This document shows, piece by piece, positions 5,450 to 60,896 of a DNA stretch of 64,000 bases. How positions within the stretch are numbered: the stretch's first letter is position 1; every line of letters begins with the position of its first letter. This DNA comes from Amphiscolops sp. MND2022 (lineage: Eukaryota): assembly GCA_964187785.1 (NCBI GenBank), contig OZ076421.1:11718001-11782000 (forward strand). The letters are read 5' to 3'. A program made the position numbers and the translations under genes. The notes beneath the pieces were generated by a model. The model had not been told where the DNA came from. It did no database searches and was given only the letters and a program-made list of their open reading frames with translations.

Positions 5450-5459
5450 CTAGAAAATT

Positions 5460-13070: not shown

Positions 13071-13133
13071 ACCTCAAAAACGAGTGTCGAATTGAATACC
13101 CTGGACATAAACATCAAAAAATTCTTTTTTAGT

Positions 13134-16100: not shown

Positions 16101-16808
16101 ACATACTGATCGCTTGCCATAGGAATTATTTTCGCTCGCTATCACACTGCCAACGTTGAAACAACCCGAAAAACTCGTCGTACTTGAACTCGGATCACCG
16201 ATTTGAGAAAATTTTGAATTCAAATCTACAGCACGGACTTGAGTCATGACATTCCTTTGAAACTGTTTTCTGGAACTGAAAGTTGTGTCGTTTCCCCCAA
16301 GCTGAACGTCCCAATAATAACTGTCTAGGTTGCATTGAATATCTTTCTCTGCAACATTTACTACTTTTTTTGAGCGCCAAGGAAACGATGCACTATCTCC
16401 GTACCCACAAAGGTAATCATACCGAATTTCTTGGCCTCTCTCGATATCACGCTTGGCTTTCAAACCAATGTATTTCACGCCGGAAATGAGAACTTCATAA
16501 GGACGGGCGTTGGGATTTTCATGATCGTCATTGATGTACCTAGCTAGTCCTGAATTAACGTCGAATGCATCAATGTACTCACTGGAACTAGGTATAACAA
16601 AAACGTAATCGTTTTCTTGCGTGGGAACCCCTTGAAAGCGTTTTCCCCTGTAAAAAAGTAGAAAATCGCCTCCCTTGAAGTCCTTGTCTGCAAAAAGACC
16701 AAATCCGACAGAGTTGCTGATGTGCTTCACGACAAAGCTGTCTTCTGGATCTTTTGCAATGAAGTCTTCAGGTCGTATTGATTTTCTCGTGGAGGATCTG
16801 CGTGTCAT
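13134..16808 (-). CDS. Two-exon SET domain + C2H2 zinc fingers + tyrosine recombinase fusion protein, 1099 aa
   Basis: Exons 16808-15712 and 15336-13134 joined by a phase-2 GT-AG intron (15711-15337) that completes a C2H2 finger (CLR|CKTIILGSNPKDIRMHLKNAH). SET motifs: GFGLFA, FLLFYRG, LARYINDDH..PNA, EIRYDY, FPWR. Recombinase motifs: VCRISS, KNFK, NAWRK, IGHS..VAQKHY. Confidence 0.88.
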
Positions 16809-17204
16809 GCTTCACTGAAAAATATGCAGAAATCAAGTTCCTGAAAATTTGATGTAAGTCAGAAAAAGGGAAGTAATGGTCGGAAAACGGTGAGTAGGAG
16901 AGTAATTAGTATATTTAGTATTTAATCAGTATTCCAAACTAGATTAACGACGTATTTGAAACAAAAACGTATTGTAATGGGTTATCACTAGGGCCGGTAA
17001 AAAGTCACGGAAAATTGTGGCAAAATCACGCGGAAAAATCACGAAAAATTACGAGTATTAAACATATATAATTACACTCCACTCAATCAAGACCAAGATA
17101 TTTAATTGAATGCAAGGAAGGTGAATAAAAAATGATATTGATTGTTATATTTGATTTGTCAGCAATCGTAGTCACATTTCTGTTTCATCTATATACAAAA
17201 TCAA

Positions 17205-20200: not shown

Positions 20201-20815
20201 TGGTTAGTGCAGAATACGTTTTATTTCTCTCTCTCTCTCTCTTGCTCTCAATATTTCAAATGTGTTTTTCTCTTATATACTGTCATATCTGTTTGAATTC
20301 TTCCCTTCATTCACTTATCAGTAGTAATCAATAAAAAATGACATCGGTTAGCGCCATTAGACTTTAGGATAAGTTTTAAAGTTTACAGTTCAATAAAGGA
20401 ATGTGGGGTCGTTAAATGATTGAGGGGTGATTAGGAGATTAAGAGACTAATTTACACACGCTATCTCACTTGGACTTTGTTTTTAGCATTCCGATCGTGA
20501 CATGGAATGTTACAGTACAACTGAGGAAGAATTTGCCAAATTTATTCATGAGAATTGTAGTGTTGACGCCGTGTTCACCAATTTCATTCATCGAGAAGGT
20601 ATCGATTGGTGGTATTGTTTCCAAAAGTTTAGCTCAACCGAAGATGCCAAAATTGCTCTGGAGTTTTTGAAAGCCAGAGATTTCAAGGGAAAAAGAATCA
20701 GAGCCATGTATGCTCGCAAGAAAGAAACAATGCCTTCTTAACAAAAGGCTCAGCACCAACAACAGAAAAGTTTCCAGAATGGTGGAAGTGGCGGTGATTA
20801 CCAGGATTACTACCA
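17205..20815 (+). pseudogene. Rearranged fragments of an RRM-containing RNA-binding gene (possible Tudor-like segment)
   Basis: 20486-20741 gives WNV.YSTTEEEF...WYCFQKFSSTEDAKIALEFLKARDFKGKRIRAMYARKK (RRM with a frameshift). It continues into QKAQHQQQK..QNGGSGGDYQDYYQ, which is duplicated at 17205-17281. EPGRLCVARIELD near 19940 resembles a Tudor start. Confidence 0.55.
17253..19967 (+). repeat. Tandem amplification A-B-A-B-A, period 1008-1009 bp
   Basis: A is ~698 bp (17253-17951, 18262-18959, 19270-19967) and B is ~310 bp. The copies differ by only a few substitutions and one 1-bp indel, and the ORF track repeats every 1008 bp. Confidence 0.97.
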
Positions 20816-21059
20816 AAATTACTACTACTACTACTGCAGAAGCTTTTTGGGAGGAACTTCATTGGCCTACAGAAACGACTAAGAGCACAACAACTGAGTG
20901 ATGATGGCGTACATTACTTACCGGAAGGCTATAAACGGATCAGGAACGCAATAATTAAATTTCTTGCGAGTCGAAGAGTAATTCCACAATACAATTAATG
21001 AACATCGTTCCACAGCATCTTTTAACTGCTTGTTGTCAATTATTATGCTGTTATTTCTA

Positions 21060-28664: not shown

Positions 28665-29031
28665 GTAGCTCTATAGCTTCATGCTCATTGAGTCCACAGT
28701 TTTGACATCGCTAATTTTTTTTTCGCTAAACTGTTAGTTTCAAAATCGCTATTTCGCTTAAAAACGTTTTTCAAACAAGAATATTTCAAATAGAAGCGAT
28801 AACTTTAATTCAATTTTTGCAAGAAAAAAAAACTTGAAATACCTAGAATTTTTAATACCGTGTGGGTTTTACACATGAAGAAGTGGAATTGCTCGAAATT
28901 CATTTTGAAGCTCTATGTATTTTCTGAGGAAATTTTTTGAATTTGGACATTCAATTAGTTGCCGCTAATTTGAATCGCTAATAAAATCGCTGAAAAAATT
29001 TTGCGCGGCTGCTGATTCGCTAAATCGCTGA

Positions 29032-29967
29032 TTAGCGGTGTCAAAACTCTGATTGAGTCTAATGTGAGTTGAAATGAAACATTGCCAAGATTTTTAAAAG
29101 GCACAATTGGTAAGGCACAGTGTGCACTGAAACCCTGTTTGTTTTTAAAAATGTGTTGCTTTTAAAAGCCCCGTGTTGCTTCGAATCCATGTCAAAGAAT
29201 GCTAGAATGTCATATACGCTGCGAGGTGTCGAGCCTCTTAAAATATCGGGTGTTTGGATGGTAGTATTTTAATTTTAATTTATCTGGTATTTTTTTTATC
29301 TGGTATCTACAGTGAAGAAATAGGCATCACACTGTACCAGAAAAGACTTTCAAAGGATCATTGCCCGATCAACGGAAGCCTTGAACAAATAAGGTTTCAG
29401 AAGGAGGACTTCCAAAAATTTTAAATTTACTATTTGGATAAGTGTCACGTTGTTTTGTGACATGCGTCGGAACACACGACGCTCATACCCTAAAGGCCTG
29501 TCATAACTCATGACTTGAGCGGCGTAAGGCGAAGATTTATCTCAAAGACTGAATTACAGTGCATCCCGGTTATAGTGAACCTCTGAGGACCGCTCACCGC
29601 TGTTCACTATATCCGGGATTCACTGTAACCGGGCTAAGCTCAATACTAGTAAGCAAATAATCGGGACCGCGCTATGCGTTCACTACAAGCAGGATCCTAC
29701 TATAACCGAGTTCACTATAACCGGGATCCACTGATATGATTTGATGTTTTGCACCCGATGTTGATGGGTGGACTTGATCAAGTGAATTATTCAGAAACTA
29801 ATTATCTAGACAACAATTCGATCAAATAAAGGTGTGAAACACAATTATCAAACTTAGTTACGTAAAAGAAAGTTAGTTGTAAAATGGAAAGTTCCTCAGA
29901 TTCGCTCAGAAAACGTCAATGACAATACTAGGCCCAATGAGATCTTTTTGTATCTGCTGGAATTACC
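29032..29967 (-). repeat. Direct repeat copy 1 (~935 bp) of the 5' part of the Helitron-like element
   Basis: Near-identical to 37958-38886, including the same internal MITE. Confidence 0.95.
29557..29733. mobile_element. Pogo/Tigger-like MITE (second copy at 38481-38642)
   Basis: TIRs cagtg.atcccggttatagtgaac / gttcactataaccgggatccactg, with TA on the left. Confidence 0.85.
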
Positions 29968-31549
29968 TAGACTCGTGTCCGTCCATTGCAATTAGAATAG
30001 CGAGTTGGATTTTATTTGGTAATGAAATGTATTTGTAGAAGGCAAAAGTAACGTACCGAAAAGTTATGACCTTAAATACGCCATAATAATTTAAAAGAGT
30101 AACTTGAAATTAACAATGATGGATAAACATCAGGAGATATCCACCGACTTTAATACACACCGAAGGAATCTTGAATTGGAAATTATAAAAGTTGAAAGGC
30201 TATCGTGGCCGGCTGGCGATGCGGAATGATATTTTTAGAAAGAAGAATTAAATGCCAAGACTTCAGATTGTCAAGTTACCTGACTTCACAACATGTCACC
30301 CAATAATGACACTGTGAACGAATTAGTCTGTGAAAAATTAGTTCACAGTGGTTTAGTTAGCAAACATGTAAAGACAACAGATTGTGAAGGGGACAAAAAA
30401 GATTTCAGTCTAATTTATGTTTCATTAATGGCAGAAACAAGAGCACAAAAGAAAAAGTAATGTCATGTTCTATAGAGAAAGTGTATTGACAACTTAGATT
30501 TTTGCTGAATTCCAACGAAAATGGTTGGTTTTTGCCTGCAAAATTGTCATGCATTACACTTTTACTTTAAACAGTCAGCAAAACAGTTTATTTAAAATAT
30601 CGCGTGGATGGATATCACTTGTCGACTCTAAGACATGTGACAGAATACTTACAACACAATAACCATGAAGCCATTTCAACAGAAGCTTCAGTATTTAACA
30701 CCGATACCTACCGGTAATGCGGCAACCTAAGAATGAAGAACAACAATTCATTAAAACAGTAAATTGAGTTTCAGCATAAATGTAACCAGGACACTCTTCA
30801 GAAACATTGAACAATGACAACCAAAAAGGCATTAGTTTATAAAGAAGGGAACGATGTATAACAGCAACCTGAAGTTCTCTGGAACGCAATTGTTTGTTAC
30901 AGTACTGTTTTGTAGGATAGCGGATAACGTTTGGTCTTGATGGCGACTGACAGACGTGAACATAGAGAATGGGGAGTTGGCATTACAGCATCATTTCCAC
31001 AGTAATGATACAAGTTTCAGAAACTTCAGCATTGAGTTTTCATAATAAATGAATTAGTGGAAAAAATGACTTGAAAGCCACGCATCTTTGGACAACTAAA
31101 AAGATCGTTACGCTAAAGCGTTGACGAATAAAGCAAACATTACGCAGGCATGGACGTTTGATTACACAAACTTAATTGTTTATCCATCTCATTACATAGT
31201 CCAACCAAAAATTGTAGAAAAGTGCACAATATGAATGGCACGAACGATGATGTTGAAGCACATCAAGGAACAAGAAATCAGTCAAATATGAGTGATCCCA
31301 ATATATTTCTGTAAACTGCATTTTCAATTTCGATATTTGTAGCGATTAAACAAACACGATTTTAAAAACAGGCAAACACATTTCAGTGGACACAGTTGCA
31401 GCATAATGTATTAGTACTGTTATTTCTAACATGGTTTCTATTATAAGCGACCACAGTAACGTAAGGGGTAATGAAAGTGAAACAAAAATGTAACGATTGT
31501 AAGTCTGACAGCGCTACAACGAATGGACCATGAAATAGGCACGAGGTTG

Positions 31550-32524
31550 TTACTCATACTTCAAAACTTCCATGTCTTCTGTCAATGCGTTCACATGAGA
31601 CACGCTGCAGAAGTGGATTCTACGCAAATCTTGTGCGACTCCGTCATCACTCATAGATGGTTTGTACCATCCTTTCACTCGCCAACCGTCTGCCTGGTTG
31701 ATCTCTCAAGTCAAATTAATGACGGCCTCGTCCAGTTGAAATGGATCAAACTCAGTAGCAGTTGGCGACAACTGTCGCTTGTTATTGACCACGAAAATGT
31801 CAGTAAGAGTAGTGAATGTGAACTCAACAAAGGTGACTTCCTCCATTGGCGCCAGCTCGTTACATCTAATGCGCACAGTCAAAGCCCATGTTTTCCGTGA
31901 TGTCACGGCGATTCAGCCGGAAGAATCCAGAACGGTTTGAGCATCACAAAAATACCCGGGGCACATGGCCTCAGTTGGTGTGGCAGATGTCATGTAAATG
32001 GTGGTCGTTATGAATTCAAAGTATTTGAAAGAAGCAACGTCGACTGAATGTGGAAGAGTTAAATTTCTCATTGGGGGAGCATTTTCGAGAGGTACTAATG
32101 GTTCCACAGTTGATAACAGGCATGTGTTGGTTAATTTCAGGAATCCTGTTTGAGGATTCAGGATGTGAATATTCACATCGGGACGAATTGAGCTGAAATA
32201 TCGTAGAAGATTGTGGCTTTCGCTTGCCGTCGAAGTAAAAAGGGCAAAGACATCTTCGGTGTCCCTGTTTCCCAACAACAAGAATCGGTGGTATTTTTCC
32301 ACCTCCACGTATCGATTCTTTCGGATGTCATTTTTTTGTCCCTTCACCATGTTCAACTTCTTCCCTGATGGCAACGAGGCGTACAAGAAGACCATGCTGA
32401 TTTTGTAGAAACGTGGCTGTTCATCATCGGAGGACAGAATGGAACGATCTCGCTCATGGAACCTCCTTTCGGATATTTCTTGTGCTTGCGCTAGGGTGAG
32501 TGATGCTTTTAAATAACCAGGCAT
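31550..32524 (-). pseudogene. Accessory gene of unknown function inside the Helitron-like element (~324 codons, two in-frame TGA)
   Basis: ORFs 31913-32623 and 31706-31906 and the downstream frame are collinear in one frame: MPGYLK...CPGYFCDAQT...WALTVRIRCNEL...GWRVKGWYKP. Confidence 0.6.
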
Positions 32525-33929
32525 TGCAACAGTTTGGAATAAGCAAGGATAACGTCTAAAAAAGTAAATGTTAATCGCAACCAAATCATCCATTCTTGTT
32601 ACATTTTGCAAATGCATAAACAACTACAATATTGAAAAGTAAAAACCTGACACTTTACAAAAACGTTCGAAAAAGCAAAAAAATCTATGCAAGTACCATT
32701 TTCCCCATTGATTAATTTTCCCAAGTAAATTTCAGAGATATAAATTCTATGGTTTAGGATTCGCCAGAAAATACGCAAGAAATATTTCGTTGTGAACCAA
32801 CAACAATATTGAGTCAAAATCAAAAATGAGCAAACGGTGGGAATTAGGAAAATCGGTGGAACATTCCACAAATTATTGTGTGGGTAATGTACCCATTGGA
32901 TCCTTGATGTTGTTGAAAAATAATTTCGCTTGGTTACTTGAAACATAACGAAAACTTTAGATGAAAAGCGGTATATATATTGCATTATTGAATAAAAATT
33001 TTTTCGTTCAAACACAGAGAATTTAACGTCACATATTAGGGGAAGTTTAGGTTAAAACCGTAGACTGCTCGGTGTTTCTCCGGCAGGTGCCTCCAACACC
33101 TTGCAGGGGTGTGTTCAAGGTCAGTCAAAACTTGTGTAAAATAAGTATTAAATTTATCAAGGTAATTTTGGAAATGTAACTAATTGGAACACAATCTATG
33201 TTTAAAAGTAATGTCATATAAAGCAAATTTCCTTCTTGTTTCGTAACGGGGATTTACTTTTTGTAGCCAGGTTTCTTTAGGTTGAAAACGTTGGTCACAG
33301 TGAGCAAGATGGTGTGGCTTGAAGAAGAAAATGTTTTTGGTAACCAAGTAAGAATTTGAGCACCCAAATGGGTTACGCTAAAGCGTGAACCCTGTCATTT
33401 TCCAGAATTTGTGTATTTGAGTGCAAATTGTCGAAAGTCGGGTTTGTTGGACGACGAAGTGACGACTTTGAGTTCCGAGTATTTGGAAACGGTAAAATGA
33501 AGAATTTTTACTGTATTGTAATACTGGAATTGACATTGTGTAAAATCACAAGAGCTAAAGGTACCACGCTGAGGCGCAGACGCCCATGAATCTGTGGGTT
33601 AAATGTGGGTATCTGAATGGATAGGTTAAATGGGAAACTCCAAAGTCGAGTAGTTAAGTACATGGAACAAATCAGGATGATCGGTGGTCTGTTGTTGAAA
33701 ACTTCATGTTAGGGTAGGATGCCGTTTTGTCTCAAGAATATATTTTTCTCAAACATTCGATGACCATCAGACTGTGAAGTACAGAAGGAAGCAATGTTTA
33801 CTCTAATTATATAACCCTTCAAACTTCAAGCCACGCTACTGCGTAGACTTGACAAAGCCACGGTAGAGCGTGGACGTGCATGGAGAAAATTGAGATTGGA
33901 ATTTATAGACAATGAACGAGTGAGCATTT

Positions 33930-36900
33930 TCAACGTGTGGAGACTTTTCCACAGATTGTCAGAATTATGCCTTTGTGGGAAGTACTATTTACAACAACTT
34001 TTAAAATGGATAGAGCGTCTATTAAAGTGTTTGGTTTTTGTTGGTTAAATTTGCGCTGCACAAAACTTTCCGTACGCAGACGCTGAGAATCGGATGGAAA
34101 ATTGTGCATGAATGCGGCAATTGCCCAACGCTGTCGATGAACAGGAGATTTGAATGAAGAGCCCTGTCTCGTCAGAAGCTTTCTTGACGTTTGTCCAACG
34201 TAGAAAGTATTTAGGTGTGGACTGCTGAGGCTAATTAAAAGATACACAAAACCATGCTGCGTAGATGGAATGTCCAAGTTGAATGGAATATATGAGTAGT
34301 TGTTCAAATGCAAAATGGAAGGTTGTTTCTTGTCAGTCAGTATCTTCAGCAGATTAAAAACATGTTGTTCCTGAAGATTGGGTTTGGAAAATAACTGCTC
34401 CACGCACAGAAGAATAGTTCTTTTAGAGCCTACGAAAACCAAATTCCTCAAGAATTTAACTCTGCTGTTTATCACAAACAACTGTTATGTCAACCAAATT
34501 GAGTAAGGTCCATCTGACAAAGAAATAGACGGGGCAAGGCACTCAAAAGTGTCGCCCATCAATTTGTGGACCGTCGAAGATACATAATTGGAAACAGTGT
34601 ACTGTGTCCTTCGGACCGTGTCGCCGCAGAAAGAGTGTGCGTAGCCAACTCGTCTTTGAATAATAACGGATCTCCAAGTGTCGAAAACAGAAGGGTCAAA
34701 GCCATTGGATGATACGTCGAAGTTAGGAGGCACCAATTTTGCCACAAAAGAAGTTGCATTTTCGGTTTGAATGTCAAGGAGCAGGCACAAGTGACCTTGG
34801 GAAATGTTTTGATCCGGCAAGTTTTCTGTTACCTTTAAAACTGCGTGTTTGTGGAGAATTAGTGTTTTAGGCTCGCGGCCCTCTTTGTTCAAGAAATTAG
34901 TCATTTTACTGGTAGCAGCAGTCCAACCAGTACATTTGCGTCGCGCAACTTCATCGGTAGCTTCCATTGTCACAAAAGGATCCCCAGAATTTTTGACTCG
35001 CTCGAAATATTCCGCAACTGCCTGATGTGCTGCAGCTCGACGACCGAAAACACGCATTAAAGTAGGATCCGTAAGATCAGTCCAACTTTCCAAAAAGATA
35101 CAGTTGTCGGAAATAGCCCTGACGATGAATGCAACGTCTTCAGGAGTAACTGGTTTCTCCCACAATCGTCTGAGAACAGCCTGTCCAACGGGGTCCCTCA
35201 TTCTGACAAAATGTTGCAGTAGTTGTAAGTTGAACGTTGTCATGATCATTGGGCTCATGAACAAATTGGTTCCAGAAACTGATGGTAACTGACAACGATC
35301 ACCAGTTGCGATAATGAAAACGCCTCCGAAAGGAACGTTAGAATGCTTCAACTGTTGTAAAATCAAATCCATCGCTGCCCATTGTTGAGCATTTATTAGG
35401 GTTATCTCTTCAACTAACAAAACTTGCAATCGCATCAGCAATGACTTGCGTTCAATTTGGTGATTGAATTTTCTCAATGCAAACTCTGCTTGTTGGAATG
35501 GTGTTAAATTGTTGTTGACAGGAAGGCCAAAATACCGGTGAATGTGTTCACCTCCAAACGAGTAGGCACGTTTTCCAGCTAAACTGGTCACGTAAACGAA
35601 TAGGCCTTTGCTCAACGCATAAGCTACTCCTAAGGTGGCAAGGAAAGTTTTACCTGATCCCGGCGGTCCAACAATCATTTCGTGTTTTAGTAAGCGTGAA
35701 CTGTTCAAGATAAGGCATTGATCAATGGAATCTTCCAATTTTTGTAGAATGTAACTTTGTTCTGCATGTTAAGCAACTGATTGCTCTGCCGACTGTTGTA
35801 ATGTCATAGGGAAATAAACTGGATTCTCAATTGTAGCTGCGGCCAAGACAGTATGATTAGGCAAATTCGGAACTGTGTTGGCGGAAAGAGCTTGAATGAT
35901 CATTAGTTTTTTTCCAGTCATAAATTCCAGAACAGCAGCCTCTGTTTCTTGAGTTAACGTGGTCATCAGACAGGAAGGCAGTTTGTCGATAAGTAAATCA
36001 CCACTTTGTAACTGATTGAATGCTTCGTTAGCTGCAACTATCAAACGGTCAAATGATTTTGTTCCACCCGGCGTGGTCGACAAAATGTGGCGAACATATT
36101 TTTGCATTAATTCTTTTAATGCTGGCGGCCCCTGAACACAGTCTGATAAAAGATTAGCTTCAATGAATGCATGTTTCAACGTTGGGACACAATAAAGGTC
36201 TATCTCGGTATCAAATTCTCCCAATGTTAAAAGTACAGAAATTAGAAATTGCACTGGATACATGGGCAAAACGTTGTGAAAAACCACTTCGGCAGGAAAC
36301 TTGGACAATGCCGGGTCTGAACTGACGTAATTGTTGTGGACAGTAGAATTGTTGAGGTTATCCAAAATCATCAATGCATCATTAATGTTGGAATCAACTG
36401 TTCCAAGCGAGCCTTTGCTGATGATAAATTCACGGAATAAGGTAACAGCACACGGGCGCAACTTAATAAGGTCACTGGCAGCGTCTATCCAATGAGAGGA
36501 AAGCACATCTTGACGTAGATATTTGATGAATACATTTCCCTTTTTTTCTCTGAAAGGGATCACTTCCCTGACGAACCACGAGAAATATTGTTTCAGTGTA
36601 CGAACGAAAAGTAGTTCAGGGGGTCTGAGAGAAAACATTGTCACTCTGTCGATAGTGAAGTCACTTTGTAAAACATCGTTTTCAACAACTGTTTGAGATG
36701 ACGTTGATTGTCGAGATGAAGGGAAATGCAATGTGTCACGCCTTGTGACAGACGAAGTCTCATGGGATACGTCACATTGGGGTTTTTGGCGCTTATGTTT
36801 TAGGTGACGTCCACCACGGTACTCCAGCGGAACAGAGGGGACGGAAACGAAATCAATATTAGTAAAAACGTACGGTAACTCCAACAGAAAAAATGCACAC

Positions 36901-38030
36901 TCAGTCTGAGCTATTCTGTAGCAGCTAACACCTGGTATCTCTTTGCATTGTAGCTACACACCGGTTACTTTCATGTTTATAATACCTTCATCCACTGCTT
37001 CAATTTGATTAAAAGATTGATTGGGCTGCAGTTTGACGAGAGCGTGCTCTTCTTTGCCTGCAGCATACTTTCGAAGATAACGTTCAGCCATTTTTTTGTC
37101 AATTCTCAAAACGTTGGAGCTAGACCTGGTGAGAGCAAAAAGTTTAGCAGAAGTGGGGCTGTAATGTTCTCCTCTGGATGCGGCATATTCGTGTTTCCCA
37201 GACTGCATTTCCTCCTTTACTTTCTTTCCAAACTTGAAATTGTTGTCATCTGTAGCTAAACCAATTTCTTGCATAACTTTGAACGCAACATCGGAATGGT
37301 CACTTTGAAAAGTCTCATACCAGTTGCAATGACTTTGAGGTTGAGGAGGAAACCTACAGTTTTCATTCCCATTTCGAACTCTAATGCAATGGTTTTTACC
37401 TTTTTGGCAACTATGTGTTAAAATTTTTTCACAGTGTGTCATTATTTCAAAAACTTCCTGTAAGCTGTTAATCAATCCGAAGGAGCATTGGAATATGTTG
37501 TAAAACTCTTGAGCAAAAACTTTTTCAGAACATTGAATTATTTGCTCCAAGTCATCAACATTGTCAATCCTTAGAAGAATTTGATAGTGTGGATAATTTC
37601 CTTCAGAAGTCTGAAACTCGGCACGGCCCCAAATTTTGAGGATGCGATCCAAAATGTTTTCGTAGCTTTTTTGCAAATAATTCAGAAAAAGTTCCATGAA
37701 GTGTTCCCAAATTCGAAGACCAATTACCATGCAAGATTGAACAGCTGCTTTTTTGATTTCATCTTCTGCACACGCAAATGTTGTTTCCACAGCACAGTAC
37801 AATTGAGACAAACCAGGTGTTTGTTTGAAATTCGCGGTTATTGTGACAAAGGCATGCGGCGTTTCAGTGGCCATTGCAGCGGCAAGTTGATTGACATTCA
37901 CACGAGTGTCCGCTTTGTCGAACTTCATGTTCGATATTTCATTAGCGAACTGCGTTGTTAGCGGTGTCAAAACTCTGATTGAGTCTAATGTGAGTTGAAA
38001 TGAAACATTGCCACGATTTTTAAAAGGCAC
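33930..38030 (-). pseudogene. Helitron-like transposase: HUH Rep + linker + PIF1 helicase + C-terminal GIY-YIG-like nuclease, three in-frame stops
   Basis: Rep motifs FVTITAN, RAEFQ..GNYPHYQILL, YLRKY. Helicase motifs GPPGSGKT, LLVEEI, GDRCQLPSV. GIY-YIG-like GFVYLLIS..FYVGQT..R. The four ORFs share one frame, separated by single stops at 36954, 35769 and 34485. Confidence 0.88.
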
Positions 38031-38886
38031 AATTGGTAAGGCACAGTGTGCACTGGAACCCTGTTTGTTTTTAAAAATGTGTTGCTTTTAAAAGCCCCGT
38101 GTTGCTTCGAAGCCATGTCAAAGAATGCTAGAATGTCATATACGCTGCGAGGTGTCGAGCCTCTTAAAATATCGGGTGTTTGGATGGTAATATTTTAATT
38201 TTAATTTATCTGGTATTTTTTATCTGGTATCTACAGTGAAGAAATAGGCATCACACTGTACCAGAAAAGACTTTCAAAGCAGCATTGCCCGATCAACGGA
38301 AGCCTTGAACAAATAAGGTTTCAGAAGGTGGTCTTCCAAAAATTTTTAATTTACTATTTGGATAAGTGTCACGTTGTTTTGTGACATGCGTCGGAACAAA
38401 CGACGCTCATACCCTAAAGGCCTGCCATAACTCATGAATTGAGCGGCGTAAGGCGAAGATTTATCTCAAAGACTGAATTACAGTGGATCCCGGTTATAGT
38501 GAACCTCTGAGGACCGCTCACCGCTGTTCACTATATCCGGGATTCACTGTATGCGGGCTGAGCTCAATACTAGCAAGCAAATAATCGGGACCGCGCTATG
38601 CGTTCACTACAAGCAGGATCCTACTATAACCGGGATCCACTGATATGATTTGATGTTTTGCACCCGATGTTGATGGGTGAACTTGATCAAGTGAATTATT
38701 CAGAAACAAATTATTTAGACAACGATTCGATCAAATAAAGGTGTGAAACACAATTATCAAACATAGTTACATAAGAGAAAGTTTCCAAAGTTTGTTGTAT
38801 AATGGAAAGTTCCTCAGATTCGCTGTTGAAAATGTCAATGACATTACTAGGCCCAATGAGATCTTTTTGTATCGGCTGGAATTACC
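37958..38886 (-). repeat. Direct repeat copy 2 (5' end of the Helitron-like element)
   Basis: Near-identical to 29032-29967; overlaps the start of the Rep ORF. Confidence 0.95.
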
Positions 38887-39556
38887 CAGTTCAACCTCGG
38901 ACCCACTAAGGTAATCTCAGCAGACGCTAAAATCTTTCTCCATGAGTGGCTTAAATCATTACGCTGAATGTTCAGAATCGTAGGACATCCCTGTGCAAAC
39001 AATTCATAACTTAGTATAGTAGTAATGGGGAGTTTTTCGAAGCGCCCGAAATTACCAAAACGTATGAACGAGATTGAGTCTCGTTTTTGAATGCCGCATT
39101 CTCAGGGGTTGAAAAACAGTAATAGGACAGGATTGTTGAAATATTTAACATGCTGTTAACACAAGCTGTTTCAACGCTATTATAATATTTTGATGGTGTT
39201 TTCAGTTTTCACCGTCTGAGTTTTCTCGTATTGTAAAAGTTCAGACTGTTGTACGAACTCGGCAAATGAGGTTTTTACTTCTATTCAAGCTGATAGAACC
39301 TTTTGGTGATAAGTTCAGGGGGTGCCAACATCACCATAATAGCTCTTGAAAGATAAAGTTGCAAAGATACTGTAAGCTAAAACAAGAACTTCAATAACGA
39401 ATTTATTCAAAATTTCATTCTCGTCTACTTTGAATAGTTTAGTCCGAGAAAGTTGGCATGTAATTACATCTTTTGTACATTCCCAAACGATAGTACTGTT
39501 AGAATAAATTACTAGAATAAATTGTAATTTACGCTTCTACAATTATTTTTTTGCAG

Positions 39557-50809: not shown

Positions 50810-51092
50810 GGGGAGCATGGTATAGTGATTAGTGCATTCGGCCTGTACCGGGGCGGTATCAGGTTCGAATCTCTCTCAACGCACCATTGTTGGGCTTTAA
50901 GAAAGTCCTTCATCCCTAGTTTAGTTGTATGGTCAAAGATAAAAATTAGGCATTTGGCGAAGAAAAGCAAAAACAAAAAGAGCAACGGTGAGCAGTCAGA
51001 CCTTTGTGACCTTGAGCAAGTCTCTTTGAAACCACAGCTTCAAGTTCACCACTGCTTGACCACTTGGATGCAAATATGGTACCATAGCTTGC
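50810..51092 (+). mobile_element. tRNA-derived SINE, interrupted at its 3' end by the LTR element
   Basis: A-box-like tggtatagtgattag, B-box ggttcgaatc and core gtgaccttgagcaagtc; (TAT)n resumes after the TSD at 58866. Confidence 0.65.
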
Positions 51093-51380
51093 TGTTGACG
51101 CAGCAGACACTGAAAAACGTTTTGTATTCAAAAATTCTAATATTGAGTTCATTGATTAAGATATCGCACCAATTAAAGACACGTGCTTCTCATTGATGTT
51201 GTAAATTTATTCACTCTTGTAATCTGAATCATTCCCTTCTTCTTTCTTCACACTGTTCAGTTGCTGTAACTCTACTAAAAATAAGTCATCAGACTAATCA
51301 TTTTGCTCTTCCAAAAACAAAGTCAATCACGACATTAATTGGTGCCATAGCACCCCGGGAAGAACCAAATCAGCATCAAA

Positions 51381-54300
51381 ATGACTTCCTATGAAAGGAA
51401 AACGCTTCAGCAACTCAAGCGCTCTCGTTCAGCGATCACAGGAGTGATAACCAAGACGCTGACAAAGACGCAACCAATTCTTGCCAAGGACAAAAACGAC
51501 GTGACACCAGATGAGATTGCTGATTTGGAAGTCAGGCAAGCACTCTTCGAGCAGAAACTAAGCGAAGCTGAGCTTCTCAACGCCGCAATTTTGGAGCAAA
51601 CCCCAGACGCAGACGACGAGGTACAGGAAGAACTCATCAATGCCAGTGAGTTTCATTGTAAAATATCTTTTGAGCTTAAAAGGATAGTAAAATTTCTCGA
51701 GCAATTCGTTGAACCTGGTCCCAGTCTTGAAAATGCTCCTGCTCCGGCAAGTGCGTCACCCAATTGTGCAAGTCTCAAAATGCCAAAATTCAGTTTGCCA
51801 AATTTTGACGGACAATATCAAAACTGGACGCCATTCTATGAACGATTCATGGCCTCGGTGGATAGTTCCAAAACTCTGCCAGACATTCAAAAATTCAACT
51901 ACCTCAAATCTTCTCTTGTGGGCGAAGCTTCACAACTCATTTCATACCTACCTTTGTCAAATACAAATTACAAGATAGCGCTGAAAATTTTGATTGACCA
52001 CTACGATAATCAGCGACTCATCATGAACACCCATTTGGCAGCCATTTTCAATTTGAAACCTCTGCAAAGCGAATCAGCATCAAAATTACGAAAGCTCATA
52101 GTCGCATTCGAAGAAAATTTGATGACCATTCAGGCTTTGAAAGTGGACGTTACTTCAAGTGATTTTGTTTGGGTTCACGTTTTGGCCAAAAAGCTAGATC
52201 CAGAATCGAGGCGGCAATTTGAACTGGGTCATCCAGGAAAGGAACTCCAGACGCTACAGCAACTAACGGAATTCATAAATAGGCGAGTTCAAGCTTTAGA
52301 AGCTTCAGATACACGCAATTATCGAGTGAAAAATGATAAAACCAGTGCTATAACAGAACGCACTTCAAAGCAGAACTTCCAGAATTCAATCACACAGAAT
52401 TATAAAGCCACGTTTGAAAAATGCTGCGTATGTTCGGCAGATCACAAAATTTTCAATTGCGAAAAATTCAAAACGTTGGATTTCAAGGCAAAGAAAGCTC
52501 TTTTTTTCAATTCCAAATTGTGCTTCAATTGTCTCCAAGAAGGTCATCTTACAAAGGATTGTAAATCCAAAAGCACTTGCAAGGTTTGCAATGGTAAACA
52601 TAATTCCTTGCTTCACAATGAAAATGCTGGTACACGCATTGAAAGTACTAGTACACTTGTCTCCGGACAAGCATTGCTTCCATCTAATATTGGCATCTTA
52701 CCAACAGCTATGGTTTCTATAGAAGATGACTCAAGCAATATCATCGATTGTCGTGCTCTTCTAGACAGTGGCTCTCAAATGAGTCTCATATCGGAAGAAG
52801 CAGTGCAACGAATGAAGTTGAAGCGTCAAAAGCAATCACTCACTGTCAATGGGATTGGCAATGTTCACGGGACATACAACTCTGGAAAGGTTCAGTTGAA
52901 AATGAAATCTAAAACAGGAAAACCGTTAGAAGTCCAGGCTTTCATTCTTCCAAATTTGACTCAGCATTTACCAAATAGGTCTTTCAAAACCACAGGCTGG
53001 CTGCAAATGAGAACAGTTGAGCTAGCAGATCCTCATTTCAATGAGAGGAAACCAATTGATTTAACTCTCGGAGCAGACGTATTCAAGGAAATTATTTTGG
53101 ATCATTCTTTCAAAGAGGAAAATGGACTTCACTTCCGTATTTCCATTTTTGGTTGGATCGCATCGGGCAACCAGCCCATTCAAGAATCGTCTAGTCTTAC
53201 AACTTCACTTTGCATAAATGAAATTTTCGATTTAAAAAAGTTTTGATAAATAGAAGAAATTCCGAAAGCAAATCAATGGACAAATGAAGAACTTGCCTGT
53301 GAAAAACATTTCCAGGAAACAACTCAAATTGTTGAAAATCGATTTCAAGTATCAATGCCTTTCAAACCAGACGCTAGACCTTTAGGAGATACATATGTCC
53401 ACGCCAAACGCCGTTTTCTCAGTTTGGAAAAAAGGTTAGAAGGTAGCTCTAGCCTGAAACAAGGTTATACAGACTTCATCAACGAGTTCATTTCTCTACA
53501 ACATCTGGAACCTGTTCCAGATGCCGAAATTGACGAGACAGACCGTCAACTGAACTTTCTACCGTATCACTGTGTTCGCAAGGAGGATTCAACAACAACG
53601 AAACTGAGAGTTGTCTTTGATGGATCTGCAAAATCAACATCTGGTAATTCTCTCAACAGTTCCTTGATGATCGGGCCGACGGTCCAAGAAGACATTTTCT
53701 CGATTCTCATAAGATTCAGATTCCATAAAATTGCTCTTTCTGCGGATATTGCAAAAATGTATAGGCAAGTCTCATTGGATAGGACCGGGAAAGATTTCCA
53801 TCGAATACTTTGACGCGATTCCGCAACAAAACCGATCCAGCAGGACCGTATGACACGATGTACCTATGGAATAGCATCTTCGGCCTTTCATTGTACTCGT
53901 GCAGTGAAGGAAATTGGAGATTCATGTGCTGACAAAGAACTCGGACACTCCATCAAGACCGATTTCTACGTTGATGCCTACCTGTCTGGAGCCAATTCCA
54001 TCACAGAAGCTAAAACGAAGATAACAAATGTTTGTGATGAACTCCAGAAGTATGGAATGCAGCTTCGTAAATGGGCCTCAAGTCATCACGAACTAACCAC
54101 AGAACTGCCTGTGGAGCTCCGCGAAAACGTGGACATTGCAAAAGTAATGCATGAAGACTACAAAATCAAAACGTTGGTAATTTCGTGGAAACCCAACACA
54201 GATGAATTCTACTTCAAGCTGACAAAGCGGGAGCTCCTCTCGATAACGGCGAGACTCTTCGATCCAATTGGTTGGTTTGGACCCATTGTAATTAGATTCA

Positions 54301-56496
54301 AGATACTACTGCAGAAAATTTGGGTTCTTGGGATCAGTTGGGATGAAACGTTGCCATCTGAGATCCAAGAGCAATGGAATCAGATGAAAACGGACTTGAA
54401 ATGTTTGAGAGATTTCTCGTTGAATCGATGCATAGTTCCCCCAACGAAAATTCAAACCGTACAACTGCATATGTTCTCAGATGCATCGGAGCAGGCATAC
54501 TCAGCTGTAATCTATGCGAGGATGGAGGACACTTCGTCACTCTGAACCTCATGACAGGAAAGAATAGAGTGGCACCCATCAAAACAGTATCTCTTCCGCG
54601 TTTGGAATTGTGTGGTGCTCATTTGGGAGTCAAACTTTTGTCCAGGGTTGAAGAAATTCTTAAACTGACAAGTCTACCACACCAAGAAGTCTTTGGTTGG
54701 ACCGATTCCACGATTGTGCTTCAATGGCTGGCACAACTTCCACGAAATTGGACAACATTCGTAGCTAATCGAGTGTCTGAAGTGCAACAAATATTGCCGA
54801 AACGAATTGGAATCACGTTTCTTCATCAAGCAACCCCGCTGATTGTTCATCACGAGGAGCAAGGCTGGAAGTTCTTCAATCCTCCAGTCTGTGGTGGAAT
54901 GGACCCGAATGGCTACAAAAATCGCAAGATTCTTGGCCAAAATCCAAATTACAATTAGCAGAACCAATTGAAGTTACTCAAAAATGCAAAAATCACTGCA
55001 GCATCAATTTCACTCGCAGTCACACAATCGACATTGCTTTTCCGACATGATCGATACTCGAGTTTTACCAAACTTATTTGGGTAGTCGCAACAGTTTTCA
55101 TCGCCATGGAGAAGCTCAAGAGAGTCAACCGTTCATCTGATGTAACTGCGGCAGACATAACATCTGCAAAACGGAAAATACTAAAGGAGCATCAGATCGA
55201 CTACTATGCAACTGAGTATCACACACTGGAAGCAGGAAAAGAGCTGTCAAAACAAAGTAAAATTCTCAATCTGAATCCATTCTTTGATGACGAAAGCAAG
55301 ATCATCAGAGTGGGTGGACGCTTGTCTCAAGACCAATTCAGAGAGCTGAAGAAATTTCCACTGTTAGTCAGTCAAGATTCAAATCTTGCAGTTCTCATTC
55401 TTCAACATTTTCATGAAGCTACGCTTCATGGTGGGGCGGAGCTGACTGTGAACTCCAGTCGAGAAGAATTTTGGATTCCAAATTCCAAGGTCCTGGTGAA
55501 AAGTGATCAGAGAATGCGTACAGTGCATTCGTTTCGAAAACAAAATACCTTATCAACTCATGGCCGACTTGCCGGCTGAAAGGATAACACCGGCAAAAAC
55601 CTTCGAAATATGTGGTTTGGATTTGGCAGGCCCAATATACACTAAACTAGGAGTAAAATCGTACATAGCTATTTTTGTTTGCTTCGTTATCAAAGCAGTT
55701 CACATTGAGTTAGTAACATCTAACGAAGGATTCATGTGTTTTGGCTATTCGGAGATTCATTTCCAGACGCGGCATACCTAGAAAAATTATCAGTGACAAT
55801 GGAAAGAATTTTGTTGGAGCTAGGAATGATATCATGAAAATACAAGAAATTCTCGCAGTGGAGAACAACAAAAAATCAGTTGGAAGTTTCATGGCGCAAG
55901 AAACAATTGAATGAGAAATGATTCCGCCCAGGTCACCGCATTTCGGAGGATTATGGGAAGCTTCAGTGAAAAGTATGAAGCGTCACCTCCGCAGAGTTTT
56001 AGGTCTTCAAGTCCTTTCATTTGAAGAGCTGAACACATTGGTAATTGAAATAGAAGGAATTCTAAATTCCCGACCTTTGTCTGCAATGTCCAGTGACCCA
56101 AACGACCTTCAACCGATTACCCCAGCACATTTTCTTCTAGGTAAATCGGCAAAAGATATACCTACAATTCCTGAATGTAATGCGAAAGTCAATTTTGGAC
56201 ACAGATTCAAGTTACTCGAAGCGTCTAAGCGGTCATTTTGGAAGTCATGGTATCGAGATTACCTGGTAACCCTTCAGATACGCAAAAGATGGCTTCAATC
56301 GGGCCCTAGCTTCCGACAAGGTGATCTTGTCTTAGTGGCAGAAGACAACATGCCCCCCTTGCGATGGAAAATGGCAAGAATTGAGCAGTTGTACTCGGGC
56401 AATGATGATATAAACAGAGTTGCGAAACTCAAAACTGCAGTTTTTCAAATCATTAGAACTGTAGTCAAGCTCAGGAAGCTTCCTATTGAGCCCTGA
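51381..56496 (+). pseudogene. BEL/Pao gag-protease-RT-RNase H-integrase polyprotein, broken by stops and frameshifts
   Basis: Gag F.NFDGQYQNW..F; three Cys/His knuckles; protease LLDSGSQ; RT LPYHCV..TTKLRVVFDGS and YVDA; RNase H FSDASEQAYSAV; integrase GLDLAGP, FGGLWEASVKS, PITPAHFL, WKMARI. Confidence 0.95.
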
Positions 56497-56559
56497 TATG
56501 GTTTCTTGAAGCAAATCGTACCTTGAAACACTTTAATAATTGCATTTATTGGTATTTGT

Positions 56560-56775
56560 CGTTCTACCGACGAAAAGTTGACCGGAGTTTTTCGAATCCC
56601 CTTTTTGCACATGACGAAGTCAATGTGCATTGCAGTCCAGCTAAGAAAGTTTTTTTTCCACAATAGCCAACTTCAGAATAAGCGCCTTTTAGAGAAAAGC
56701 CAAAACCCCAGAGAGATTCGAACCTGCAGCCTCCCGATTGCGCGGCATAAGTGTTAACCACTGTGCCATAAGGAC
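56560..56775 (-). mobile_element. tRNA-derived SINE inserted in the LTR element
   Basis: A-box tggcacagtggttaa and B-box ggttcgaatc on the minus strand. Confidence 0.7.
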
Positions 56776-57451
56776 GTTATTGAATAAAGTTGAACTGTTG
56801 AATATACACGCATGCGATTAAAATAATATATATACGCATATTAAAATAATCGTTGTCTTCGTCATGTGTTGCGAAGCACCGCTTCGCCTCTGTGTGAGAT
56901 TATCCATAGCAGCGCTCTAGGACTTACTTTAAATTGTACAGGAGACTCTCTGCTACAACTTCTTGGAAACCGAATTTTTAATTTCGGATTTTATCTCATT
57001 TTCTGAACCCTCAAAGTTATCACCTATTACCCTATTTTCAGTACTATTCAGCAGCTACAAAATTATTTTCATGTTTAAAGTCATTGAAGAGGTCATATAA
57101 AGAAACAAACGTAACAAATCAACCTGAAACAGAATGGAGCGTGGCTAACACTGTGAATGACTCGGCAGCAGAAAGATTGGATCAATTGATAAACCGCTAC
57201 GTACTTGTACGAATGAATCAGGTAGTTCATGCGTCGACAACGTACTATTCCATTAACATTTTGTCCAATGTGTGAATACCTTACTGCAATTCACTCAGTC
57301 ATTCGATTTATTCACGTGAGCTGGCACACTGTTGATTGCTATGGTCATCAAAAAATCAAACGTTATTCAATGAACGAATGTAATTTCTGAAGATCAAATT
57401 TTGTTTTGTCATAACAAAAAAAAGTTCCACTGAAATGAAATTATCATTTGG

Positions 57452-58565
57452 TTACTCGCTGGTGGCATTCCAATTTTCTACCCAAGCAGCAATAGGGAGT
57501 TCTTCATCATCAGAATCGAGATCAGTCAACGTTGGACAATCTTTACGTCCCCTTTCTGATACTGATAGACCAAAATTAGCCAACCGTCGATTCTTCAAGG
57601 ACTTTCTTTTCAAGACTTTCTTTTGATCGAACTGAAACTCTCTTTTAAGTTCTATTCAAAGCGATGGAAGGCTTCAAGGTGCTCCACCATCTCTTTTCTA
57701 ACAAGGAATGCCCTGACAGTCTTGGATTCCGAACAGACTGCAGACGTTTCAGACGATTTTTCCTGCACATATTTCTTCCAATCAGACAACGCTTTTCTCC
57801 AGTACTCTATTCTGAGAAGCTTAATCAGACGACCCAAGGACATCTGCTCAAGCCACTGCAGAATAAAGCCCCGTTTGACGCCGCTACAAAACCGATCTAT
57901 TACCAAACTTCCACGAAGATGGTCAGATACGTTCAAACCCTCCCAACCGTGCACAAGAGACCAGCTAGTGCTTCCATCGGCAGCCGATGTGCGACCAGTC
58001 AGAACACAATGTGCAAAACAAGGAGGTTGAATCAGAAGGTCACCAGGTTTCGCCAAATGATAACTGAGACCACGACAGCCCCTGCGCTTTCTATATGGCC
58101 ACTGGTGAACCAAGGACCCTTTATTGCTAGAAGAGCCTTCGAATCAACTGAAATGTATGGAGGCACGTCGACGCGTACACAGTCATCGCTAAGTTCGAAC
58201 GAGACTGTTCGACTACCTTCAAAACCTTTGTTATCCAAACCTGAACTGGTAGCGTGGACAACAGCATCATATCTATTTTTGAATGATTCGAACAAAGCAT
58301 GGCCATGATTCCAGAAAGCTTTAACTTGAGGACTCAAGTCGCACAGAGTGTCAGCAAGAGGTCCACGGATGACAGTTGGGATGCTTGGAAAATTACTCGC
58401 CCAATTCAGAGCATTGAAAAGCACCAAAACAGGAAGTTTTCCCCGAGCTTTCCAATTGCTGCCATCATTTTCCTCAGCCTCAAAGAAAATATCTTCTATA
58501 TCATTTTCAGCTGCAACAAATTGCGACGCAGACTCACCGTCAACACTTTCCCCAGCAAGATTCAT
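57452..58565 (-). pseudogene. Antisense JmjC-domain ORF carried by the BEL/Pao element (internal deletion and frameshifts)
   Basis: PTVIRGP...ALLAIKGPWFTSGHIESAG (HxE), then in the next frame LAKPGDLLIQPPCFAHCVLT (distal His). A basic/acidic tail follows after another frameshift. The ATG lies 51 nt inside the 3' LTR boundary. Confidence 0.72.
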
Positions 58566-58865
58566 GGCAGTTTCTGAAAAATTTTTTGAAGCCACTTGCT
58601 TCAAGGGGAGCGGAATGTTGACGCAGCAGACACTGAAAAACGTTTTGTATTCAAAAATTCTCATATTGAGTTCATTGATTAAGATATCGCACCAATTAAA
58701 GACACGTGCTTCTCATTGATGTTGTAAATTTATTCACTCATGTAATCTGAATCATTCCTTTCTTCTTTCTTCACACTGTTTAGTTGCTGTAACTCTACTA
58801 AAAATAAAAGTCATCAGACTAATCACTTTTGCTCTCCCAAAAACAAAGTCAATCACGGCACTTGC

Positions 58866-58946: not shown

Positions 58947-60265
58947 GGATTTAGCATCAATGCAAGGGATGGGTATTTGTCCCTAGGTATAAAAGTTAAA
59001 ATGAGATATAAGTTAACTTATTTCTACAGTTATTCAGTGTACAGTCACAGAAGAGTTTCCAAGTACATGGCGATTCAGAGTTGAAGTACTGTTGAAAGTA
59101 ATTCCAGCTGTATTTCAACAATCTTTGCTTCAGGCCGTCTGTCTTCAGGAACTGTATTTCGGGTGGCATAAGATTGACAAGACGAGCTGTTCGAAACCAA
59201 AAATTTTGCCGGCATTGCTCGAGTCTTAGTATATGTAACCTGAAAATATTACTGGTATTCCGTGCCATTGACAGGTTGGGATTGATTGTGTAGTGCTCTG
59301 ATAAGTCACAGTCGTAATACCCAATAACGATTTTGTGTAATAGGAGAATGTCTGTAATTTGCATATATAGATGAAGTGGTAAAATATTGAGCATTATGAG
59401 TGCTGAGCGGTAGTTTTCTTCAGGAAGAATCCATTTGACAACTGATGTCTGGAAATGCTCAAGTTTTCGTGCTTGGGTGACATTGGCGGCCAAACAATGG
59501 GACCCATAGAGTAAAATAGGCAACATCATACTTTTGTATAAATTAAGCTTCGCTATGGTGGTGAGCATTGGCGAGTTTCGTCGAACCATTTGGTATACTT
59601 TCCGAGCCTTTCCAATTGCGGTAGTTATGTGCCCATTCCAATTTAAATTCTCCGTGATAAGTATTCCAAGGTCCTTTTGTTGGTTTGCTGTTGGAATTGT
59701 ATCACCATTAAACATGAGATTATGATTGTACGTGCTTCTCCCAAATGTTATTGCTGCACATTTCTTGACATTAAAAGGCTGACAGTTTACCTCACTCCAA
59801 TTGTATATATTGTTCATATCTGCTTGAAAATCGTTGCTGTTCAATTCCATTCCTATGAATTTGGAATCGTCGGCTGCCAATAGAGGGATGCTGAATCTGC
59901 ATTCATCTGGCAAATCATTGATGTATATCAAAAATAATATAGACGCCAAGATTGCTCCTTGGGGCACGCCACTAGATGCTTTGATGGGTTTAGATAGGCT
60001 GTCATTTACCCTGACTTGTTGTTGTCGACCAAGGATATACGACTTCATTAATTTGAAGAGTTTTCCTCTTATCCCAGTGCAGTAAAGCTTTTTCAATAGT
60101 ATTCCATGGTCGACCCTGTCGAAGGCCTTTTCAAAATCTGTGTAGACGACTGTTACTTCTTTGTTCTCATCTAGCGATTGGTATACGATGTTCAAGTATT
60201 TCAGCAGTTGCACTGTCATGGATCTTTGTTTCCGGAATCCATATTGGAGAGATAGTATCCGAAAG
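58947..60265 (-). mobile_element. 5'-truncated CR1/L2-like LINE with uninterrupted RT frame
   Basis: QYGFRK, YTDFEKAFDRVDH, SGVPQGAIL, YINDLP, AADD, QKDLGI; short 3' UTR followed by (TAA)n. Confidence 0.93.
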
Positions 60266-60896
60266 GGCGCCGACATAGAAAAGCAGAACTGCTTATTCGG
60301 CGTCCACCCCGCGGAATTGGGGAAATGAACTTTCTTCTTCCTTCAGTATTTCAGTATGTCTCAGATTGAGACGTTCCCGTCATTTTAATCGGCTATAAGT
60401 TAAGTTTGATTCGGAAGATAAAACTTCGAGTTGGCTAAAACAACAGAAGCATGAAAGAATAACTTTGGGCGCCAATATTTTTTATCCTACTATCCAAGAG
60501 CCAAAACGCGTCATGTTACTTTTGATTTGTCATCATAACGCAGGAGTTTCAAGTCATCTATCAGATGTCTGAAAACAAAACAAAACCACTGAATCAACTC
60601 AAAACCTGGAGCAACCATTAACAATCCTGTTGAGACAGAAATTGAACGCATGGCAAAAACAAATTCCCCCATTGAAAGTAAAGTTTTTTCTTTTTCTTAA
60701 AAACCACAAACTATGAAAAATGAGCCCCTTTGTAGATTTTTTGCAAGTAATGAATGTGTTCTGCAATAAGCTACGAACTCGGCAATAAGTACTTCAAATT
60801 GTCGGTTTTTGGCCACAATCGATTTGGACCTGATCTGTCTTTTGTCTTTTTAAAACTCTCGGGAAGAACTTCACCTATCGTGTTGTTTTTTCCCAG

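Follow-up and report, generated by a model that had tools for sequence, protein, structure and literature searches.

An antisense gene of BEL/Pao retrotransposons suggests that elements may fight their own silencing with a Jumonji-type enzyme encoded on the reverse strand

Animal retrotransposons are mostly repressed by small-RNA-guided histone methylation. To our knowledge, the counter-silencing factors described for transposons come mostly from DNA transposons, or from plants, fungi and large DNA viruses, and the counter-measures that retroelements oppose to silencing are poorly known. Among the closest described systems, a Ty3/Gypsy lineage of orchids (Phalaenopsis) contains an ORF encoding an active AlkB m6A demethylase (PMC9289625). 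In the BEL/Pao group, few elements possess an env gene (PMC3118150). The words 'JmjC' and 'antisense' are absent from the available text of this BEL/Pao survey, as are 'jumonji', 'jmj' and 'demethylase' from a review (PMC6431247), and the section in which the orchid study screens 25,565 plant consensus sequences does not name the JmjC domain (PMC9289625). A search of the literature, outside Repbase Reports, most subscription journals and supplements, retrieved no published case of an LTR retrotransposon with a JmjC gene. The first-pass annotation of the locus presented here had considered that extra ORFs are usually env-like and that a chromatin enzyme would be unusual, a view that holds only in part, since enzymatic extra ORFs have precedents in the LTR elements of rotifers (PMC5408684) and in the orchid AlkB lineage (PMC9289625). 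The present analysis shows that a BEL/Pao clade carries an intronless, stand-alone gene for a JmjC Fe(II)/2-oxoglutarate (2OG) oxygenase, located in antisense between the integrase and the 3' LTR, and that selection on the catalytic core has accompanied the diversification of this gene. As a 2OG oxygenase borne by a transposon, and a candidate factor against silencing, it is new with respect to its enzyme class, its element class and its host.

The window, i.e., the whole stretch of 64 kb that was analysed, consists of animal-type genomic DNA (approximately 38% GC) containing many mobile elements. One of these is flanked by two consecutive exons of POLD2 on the plus strand, corresponding to residues 261-336 and 335-412 of human POLD2. 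Its LTRs, primer-binding site (PBS), polypurine tract, target-site duplication (TSD) and gag-PR-RT-RH-IN domain order identify it as a BEL/Pao element, in accordance with the class first assigned to it and with the Pfam domains matched in order along its length, DUF1759 (E 6e-34), Peptidase_A17 (E 9e-34) and DUF5641 (E 2e-26). The LTRs (51093-51334 and 58616-58860) are 97.5% alike, with 6 mismatches over 242 aligned columns and 3 additional gap columns, and CTTGC occurs on both sides of 51093-58860, so that the antisense ORF does lie, as claimed, inside an LTR pair bordered by a 5-bp TSD. The features of the element are listed below, P0001 being an intact sibling of the JmjC protein described further on.

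51093-58860: BEL/Pao LTR retrotransposon, inside a POLD2 intron
51088..51092, plus strand: 5' target-site duplication CTTGC
51093..51334, plus strand: 5' LTR of 242 nt, TG...CA, direct repeat
51340..51357, plus strand: PBS-like sequence starting with TGGTGCC, 5 nt past the 5' LTR
51381..53246, plus strand: gag-protease ORF with DUF1759, zinc knuckle and aspartyl protease, stop at 53244
53250..56496, plus strand: pol, with RT, Peptidase_A17/RNase H region, integrase H2C2 and DUF5641
56497..57451: spacer of 955 nt between the converging pol and JmjC ORFs
57452..57619, minus strand: C-terminal JmjC piece (P0001 residues 366-420), with a basic NLS-like stretch and an acidic tail
57619..58077, minus strand: middle JmjC piece (P0001 residues 215-367), with the PGD strand and C-terminal helices
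58011-58009, minus strand: codon of the distal iron-binding His, in the middle piece
58077..58565, minus strand: N-terminal JmjC piece (P0001 residues 1-164), with the H-x-E codons at 58097-58095 and 58091-58089
58603..58615, plus strand: polypurine tract, directly before the 3' LTR
58616..58860, plus strand: 3' LTR of 245 nt, putative antisense promoter for the JmjC gene
58861..58865, plus strand: 3' target-site duplication CTTGC

The pol region is degenerate: it is interrupted by stops, and its frame changes at least three times (near 54500, 55495 and 55720). In the same POLD2 intron, the segment 58866-60342 contains a LINE-type RT ORF (58996-60342, minus strand), and its (TAA)n tail abuts the 3' TSD of the BEL element.

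The antisense ORF (58565-57452) occurs between the integrase and the 3' LTR and its reading spans three frames. It begins with a minus-strand ATG at 58565, which is 50 nt inward from the boundary of the 3' LTR, in agreement with the antisense start near the 3' LTR previously indicated. The motifs PTVIRG, GHIE and KPGDLLIQPPCFAHCVLT, initially noticed as PxVIRG, GHIE and a PGD strand, are indeed present, distributed over two frames. Among 664 candidates, a search of longer proteins yielded P0001 as its sole match, an intact sibling of 420 residues which is 92% identical to the window copy (95% over residues 1-164, 95% over residues 215-367 and 84% over residues 366-420). The alignment confirms the suspected internal deletion of about 50 residues with a frame shift, exactly 50 residues of P0001 (165-214) being missing from the window copy. 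The lost segment includes Lys175 and a predicted GRKLW strand, by which P0001 provides the full-length JmjC with a GxKxW strand that had been sought in sibling elements. The 50-codon deletion and the associated frame change occur at about 58077, and are accompanied by a premature stop at approximately 57652 and a second frame change at approximately 57619. Owing to these lesions, the window copy is unable to make an active enzyme; it is a dead pseudogene inside a dead element. An intron in place of a deletion is ruled out because the sibling P0001 possesses 50 more residues, not fewer. The plus-strand ORFs 57569-58030 and 57649-58308 were rejected as shadows, being Pfam-negative and overlapping a conservation pattern that tracks the catalytic residues of the minus strand. 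An env-like ORF3 was similarly discarded, the ORF being antisense and devoid of any transmembrane segment (the highest 19-residue hydropathy is 1.1-1.7 in 4 intact members, with 1.13 for P0001). A minus-strand AATAAA occurs at 57312, 140 nt past the JmjC stop, as a weak signal among the 89 such hexamers of the two strands of the window. The sequence TTTTTCAG, resembling a splice or trans-splice acceptor, is found 7 nt before the JmjC ATG (58566-58585, minus strand) and again in the antisense LTR (58635-58642, minus strand); this was a post hoc observation, and the window contains 33 occurrences of the 8-mer over its two strands.

A search with P0001 recovered 11 JmjC clusters among 5,910 candidates. 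These close clusters represent about seven lineages at 42-56% identity, all with the catalytic core kept, and together with two further rows they form a single clade with a support of 96 (FastTree, 83 rows). The Pfam JmjC profile (PF02373, gathering cut-off of 24 bits) matches none of the 11 close relatives including P0001, so that the expected HMM match fails at face value, and P0001 is recognised by neither Pfam, PHROGs nor NCBIfam. Among 63 selected members of the family, 6 match Pfam JmjC below the cut-off (best 21.7 bits, E 2.8e-4). The JmjC call relies instead on structure, on a language-model search and on more distant family members; the identity proposed by the first-pass annotation is thus borne out by the structure searches, by the ESM Atlas, where the best match for P0001 is a JmjC cluster (0.97), and by the H-(E/D)-H signature of distant members.

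These distant members come from a profile search of 1.84 billion representatives, which retrieved 161 proteins at E<=0.001 (representatives at 50% identity, 150 of them listed). Conservation was assessed on 160 family proteins, of which 79 cover the catalytic core. The iron triad H-(E/D)-H, corresponding to H158, E160 and H237 of P0001, is found in 70 of these 79 homologues, with Thr155 kept in 65 and Lys175 in 73. The Thr, His, Glu/Asp, Lys and His positions align without gaps to the T, H, D, K and H of PHF8, whose Thr and Lys we take to be 2OG ligands. Other features set the family apart: it uses HxE where KDM7 enzymes have HxD, the Tyr of the SVWYH strand of PHF8 is replaced by Ala, Ser or Thr in 77/79 core-covering homologues, and Glu260 is kept in 49 of the 55 core rows having a residue at this position. 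Compared to PDB sequences, the 113-row family profile gives PHF8, PHF2 and C. elegans KDM7 as its seven best matches (E 0.01-0.04); PDB sequence searches with the window pieces and with P0001 gave chance matches only, and the 11-row profile gave none. No PHD, CXXC or other reader domain was matched by Pfam in the 11 close or the 63 selected members.

As modelled by AlphaFold2 from a 113-row alignment (pLDDT 90.2, pTM 0.89), P0001 is predicted to be a JmjC-type double-stranded beta-helix fold; this model supersedes an earlier one built from 11 rows (pLDDT 52), whose JmjC matches were sub-threshold. Foldseek returned 399 matches at E<=0.001 for the model, the listed rows all being JmjC proteins, led by TYW5 (E 3e-8), FIH and C. 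elegans KDM7A. In an independent structure search of 48,161 chains, the first 14 were likewise all JmjC proteins (Z 14.6-11.1), including JMJD5 (Z 14.6, rmsd 3.4, 193 aligned residues), PHF2 (Z 14.1, rmsd 5.3, 249 aligned) and TYW5 (Z 14.0, rmsd 4.0, 212 aligned), with FIH, JMJD6, KDM2A and CeKDM7A also in leading positions. JMJD5, PHF2/PHF8, KDM2A and TYW5 thus occupy the range of Z 13-15, and AlkB-type folds that of Z 8-9. The KDM2/7 chains align over approximately 235-260 residues including the C-terminal helices, versus approximately 190 for JMJD5. Intact copies are probably catalytically active, as JmjC oxygenases that may have a KDM7-like mode of action; the absence of a reader domain, the HxE motif and the replaced Tyr of the SVWYH strand led us to file the protein as a JmjC oxygenase rather than as a KDM7.

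The scores at the head of the structure search, where the hydroxylases JMJD5, TYW5, FIH and JMJD6 tie with PHF2/PHF8/KDM2A, also agree with a protein hydroxylase or arginine demethylase of the JMJD5/JMJD6/FIH/JMJD7 type, whose target would be either Gag of the element itself or a host protein other than a histone, for instance a factor of the piRNA pathway, of translation or of splicing. The JmjC-only architecture, shared with JMJD5/JMJD6/FIH-type hydroxylases, the small residue that replaces the active-site Tyr and the conserved Glu260 point in the same direction. However, among JmjC proteins the sequence profile ranks only chains of the KDM7 type, the C-terminal helices align with those of KDM2/7, and the tail is basic; a substrate of this kind seems unlikely on the whole, without being negligible. 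Even with a non-histone substrate, the protein would constitute a novel oxygenase whose active site is altered and which a selfish element has retained. The rank of TYW5, first in Foldseek and with a Z of 14.0, would rather suit an RNA substrate, such as a nucleobase of the primer tRNA or of the element transcript, modified in a TYW5-like manner or like that of the orchid Gypsy AlkB, as an aid to reverse transcription or an escape from RNA-level surveillance. An LTR-borne AlkB does demethylate m6A RNA in vitro (PMC9289625) and the basic tail could bind nucleic acid, but AlkB-type folds score far lower and TYW5 gave no sequence match with the 113-row family profile among PDB sequences, which makes an RNA substrate improbable. 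A JmjC oxygenase acting on chromatin is the tentative reading developed below.

With respect to its inheritance, the JmjC gene was followed in related elements. Among five lineage representatives, the catalytic blocks are 73% and 67% identical, versus 35-47% for the other blocks, a core-biased conservation that appears as expected under selection on catalysis. P0053, a copy with 89% identity, begins in the antisense LTR and continues in frame into the ORF, with 18 of 20 upstream residues matching the antisense reading of the 5' LTR; it is therefore a second copy with the same LTR-JmjC junction. Using the C-terminal piece of the window integrase, 2,977 proteins were retrieved, of which 120 were listed. 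The source contigs of the 28 closest ENA pol rows were compared with those of the 11 JmjC clusters; none of the other listed rows matched by eye. Two pairs emerged from this comparison, JmjC P0007 with pol P0171 (1,452 aa), both from contigs of 8,759 nt, and JmjC P0011 with pol P0164, both from contigs of 527,870 nt. The probability of sharing a size by chance is 0.02-0.08% for 8,759 nt and 1.5-5% for 527,870 nt, with 0.08-0.25 pairs expected overall, figures which assume assemblies of 0.3-1 Gb, and an equal contig size says nothing on position or strand. Only 2 of the 11 close JmjC clusters were paired with a pol, the other 9, including that of P0001, being partnerless, and for the 7,503-nt contig of P0001 no pol more than 77% identical appeared among the matches listed (proteins of 339-2000 aa only). 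P0007 is truncated and has Asn for the first His, and no element with both JmjC and pol intact was seen. A JmjC-pol fusion was rejected, the family profile finding nothing below E 0.18 in the 120 pol proteins. Together, the P0053 junction and the two contig pairs, P0007/P0171 and P0011/P0164, place the JmjC ORF in sibling elements and point to an inherited accessory gene instead of the one-off insertion against which the annotation had cautioned; inheritance of the gene by the BEL clade is very probable.

The three linked integrases (window, P0164 and P0171) fall in one 10-row clade with a support of 96/95 in a tree of the search matches. Their identities (74% for window-P0164, higher than the 68% for P0164-P0171) conflict with the grouping of the JmjC proteins, where P0007 and P0011 share 69% and P0001 shares 42-49% with either, and the conflict is therefore ascribed either to an exchange of modules between families or to a chance pairing of the long contigs.

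The JmjC family is far larger than its BEL-linked clade, the 161 representatives being distributed over several deep branches. Another JmjC gene of the window (10371-10820, minus strand) matches Pfam JmjC above the cut-off (25.4 bits), and is a distant relative of the family by profile (E 4.5e-6 among 1,195 ORF pieces) and by HHalign (92.7%). It appears to be spliced, with a probable upstream exon within 11183-11788, in a cluster (10368-16811, minus strand) that also comprises a SET-domain ORF (15675-16811, E 1e-10), an ORF of 751 aa (13134-15389) with tyrosine-recombinase-like motifs recognised by eye only and no library match, and a tandem array of 85-88-nt units (12571-13073). This cluster is possibly a recombinase-type mobile element equipped with both a histone writer and an eraser. 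Just past the SET ORF, three tandem copies of 1,008 nt, 98-99% alike and containing short ORFs, extend over 17241-20825. There are hints, from this cluster, of chromatin-type enzymes on mobile elements of several kinds in this genome. Elsewhere in the window, a PHD finger (E 2e-8) occurs in a LINE ORF1-like protein (4531-5559, plus strand) upstream of an endonuclease-RT ORF, as another chromatin-type domain on a retroelement. A Helitron-like locus at 29015-38889 exhibits a Rep (Helitron_like_N, below cut-off), a PIF1 helicase (E 2e-12) and a weak GIY-YIG ORF (minus strand); it is enclosed by direct repeats of approximately 1 kb (29015-29970 and 37941-38889, 94-97% alike), which is unusual for a Helitron.

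As for the possible sources of the family, two scans of bacterial and archaeal genomes gave 23 and 15 pattern matches, none of which was confirmed as a relative, so that a prokaryotic source is not indicated. Viral structures gave weak, generic cupin/JmjC matches only (best E 5e-6, at most 15% identity among the top rows), and a viral donor was accordingly not identified. Four distant members, P0060, P0117, P0120 and P0150, show a GARP/FYMINK ratio of 1.6-3.1, versus approximately 1 for most, i.e., a GC-rich-type composition, and basidiomycete and haptophyte clusters are among the Atlas neighbours of P0120, which are no more than leads; an extension of the family beyond animals is possible.

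The breadth of the family far beyond the BEL-linked clade, the distant relative in the SET-bearing gene cluster of the window and the incongruence between the JmjC and integrase trees could also be accounted for by a passenger, i.e., a JmjC gene of another mobile-element family that BEL elements would have acquired repeatedly or passively, with no benefit to themselves, in the way TET genes are passively transferred between DNA transposons (PMC12730594). A passive passenger would decay, whereas here the catalytic core is preferentially conserved, the about seven lineages hold together in one supported clade despite identities of 42-56%, and the integrase clade is of matching breadth; this explanation is quite improbable.

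The inherited accessory gene would operate as follows. Its mRNA would be transcribed on the minus strand from the 3' LTR region, independently of gag-pol; a separate transcript is inferred because the host POLD2 runs the other way, on the plus strand, and host read-through was rejected as its source for the same reason. The protein would enter the nucleus by means of its basic C-terminal stretch: close to the C-terminus, 20 of the 24 long members have a 12-residue segment with at least 5 K/R, a count made with no shuffled control. In five long close members the C-terminal tail (residues 365-410 of P0001) consists of a K/R-rich stretch followed by a (D/E)-rich segment ending with P-L/V, perhaps an NLS and a short docking motif. 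The basic stretch and the absence of a transmembrane segment suggest a nuclear enzyme. There, it would oxidatively remove repressive histone methyl marks of the H3K9me/H3K27me type, as KDM7 does, or else modify a silencing factor, and the element family would stay transcribable. Having neither a reader nor a DNA-binding domain, the protein would be expected to work in trans and to show little preference for particular sequences, unless recruited through its helical or acidic tail. The CpG observed/expected ratio is 0.8-1.07 in every 8-kb block of the window, with little sign of CpG methylation decay, and silencing in the host may on this account depend less on DNA methylation than on histone marks.

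Histone demethylation for counter-silencing is the preferred but tentative reading, at somewhat less than an even chance. A broader proposal, held more tentatively still, is that an eraser made by BEL elements from an antisense LTR transcript strips H3K9/H3K27 methylation, and belongs to a branch of a large Pfam-invisible family of mobile-element JmjC enzymes (161 representatives) traded between unrelated elements in the course of an arms race of writers and erasers that would oppose transposons to the chromatin of their animal host; the trade is proposed because the distant relative has a SET-domain gene and an ORF resembling a recombinase as its neighbours in the window. Selection for the antisense transcript itself (through dsRNA and self-limiting silencing) or for a non-catalytic scaffold, with the enzyme being secondary, is very improbable because no positions are better conserved than the iron and 2OG ligands, even though dsRNA may mediate regulation by the antisense transcripts of LTR elements (PMC7264820) and catalysis-independent functions of JmjC proteins are known (PMC7192584). 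The counter-silencing reading suggests that elements may fight their own silencing via a Jumonji-type enzyme of the reverse strand, and one small, well-folded protein makes a direct test possible. Standard domain annotation has overlooked this JmjC family.

Compared to known systems, the element resembles first of all the orchid Gypsy lineage, an LTR lineage that has fixed an extra 2OG/Fe(II) oxygenase ORF as a proposed counter to host surveillance (PMC9289625). The orchid case differs in being a plant Gypsy lineage with a recent RNA m6A demethylase of the AlkB class, close to host enzymes (PMC9289625), whereas the present gene belongs to animal BEL/Pao elements and to the JmjC class, and is deeply diversified, no close cellular relative having been found for it. 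By analogy, the KDM4-like genes of the giant viruses endogenised in Amoebidium, for which an evasion of H3K9me has been proposed, are also JmjC-only, reader-free and carried by a genomic parasite (PMC11244446); they are intron-bearing, KDM4-derived genes of a large DNA virus (PMC11244446), in contrast to the intronless gene of a retroelement, nearest to KDM7 by sequence and tied between several JmjC groups by fold. The JmjC proteins ORF11 and ORF13 of LbFV were similarly captured by an inherited parasite of animals (PMC5381508), but they belong to a dsDNA virus, are detectable by Pfam and are traceable to a wasp gene (PMC5381508); towards P0001, the LbFV JmjC shows a weak fold match only (E 1e-3). 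DNA transposons encoding TET/JBP, SET or VANC proteins offer another parallel, with transposon-borne epigenetic enzymes and anti-silencing factors swapped between families (PMC12730594). In rotifer LTR elements, a non-env enzyme also occupies the env position and some ORF types are common to unrelated retroelements, the ORF3 product being an exonuclease or an esterase, not a JmjC oxygenase (PMC5408684). Among cellular enzymes, KDM7/KDM2 (PHF8, PHF2, KDM7A, KDM2A) are the nearest solved sequences and match in fold, C-terminal helices included, with the T, H, D/E, K and H positions aligned; the family differs from them by an identity of 13-16%, no PHD/CXXC, HxE for HxD and the replaced Tyr of SVWYH. 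Finally, the antisense ORFs of plant Gypsy elements share the same position and orientation, and the Grande gene is transcribed antisense from its own promoter into a nuclear protein. The products of these plant ORFs (TRP28 and others) are of unknown function, whereas the BEL/Pao gene presents a predicted enzyme fold with a catalytic triad, and thereby offers a function for the long-unexplained antisense ORFs located between pol and the 3' LTR.
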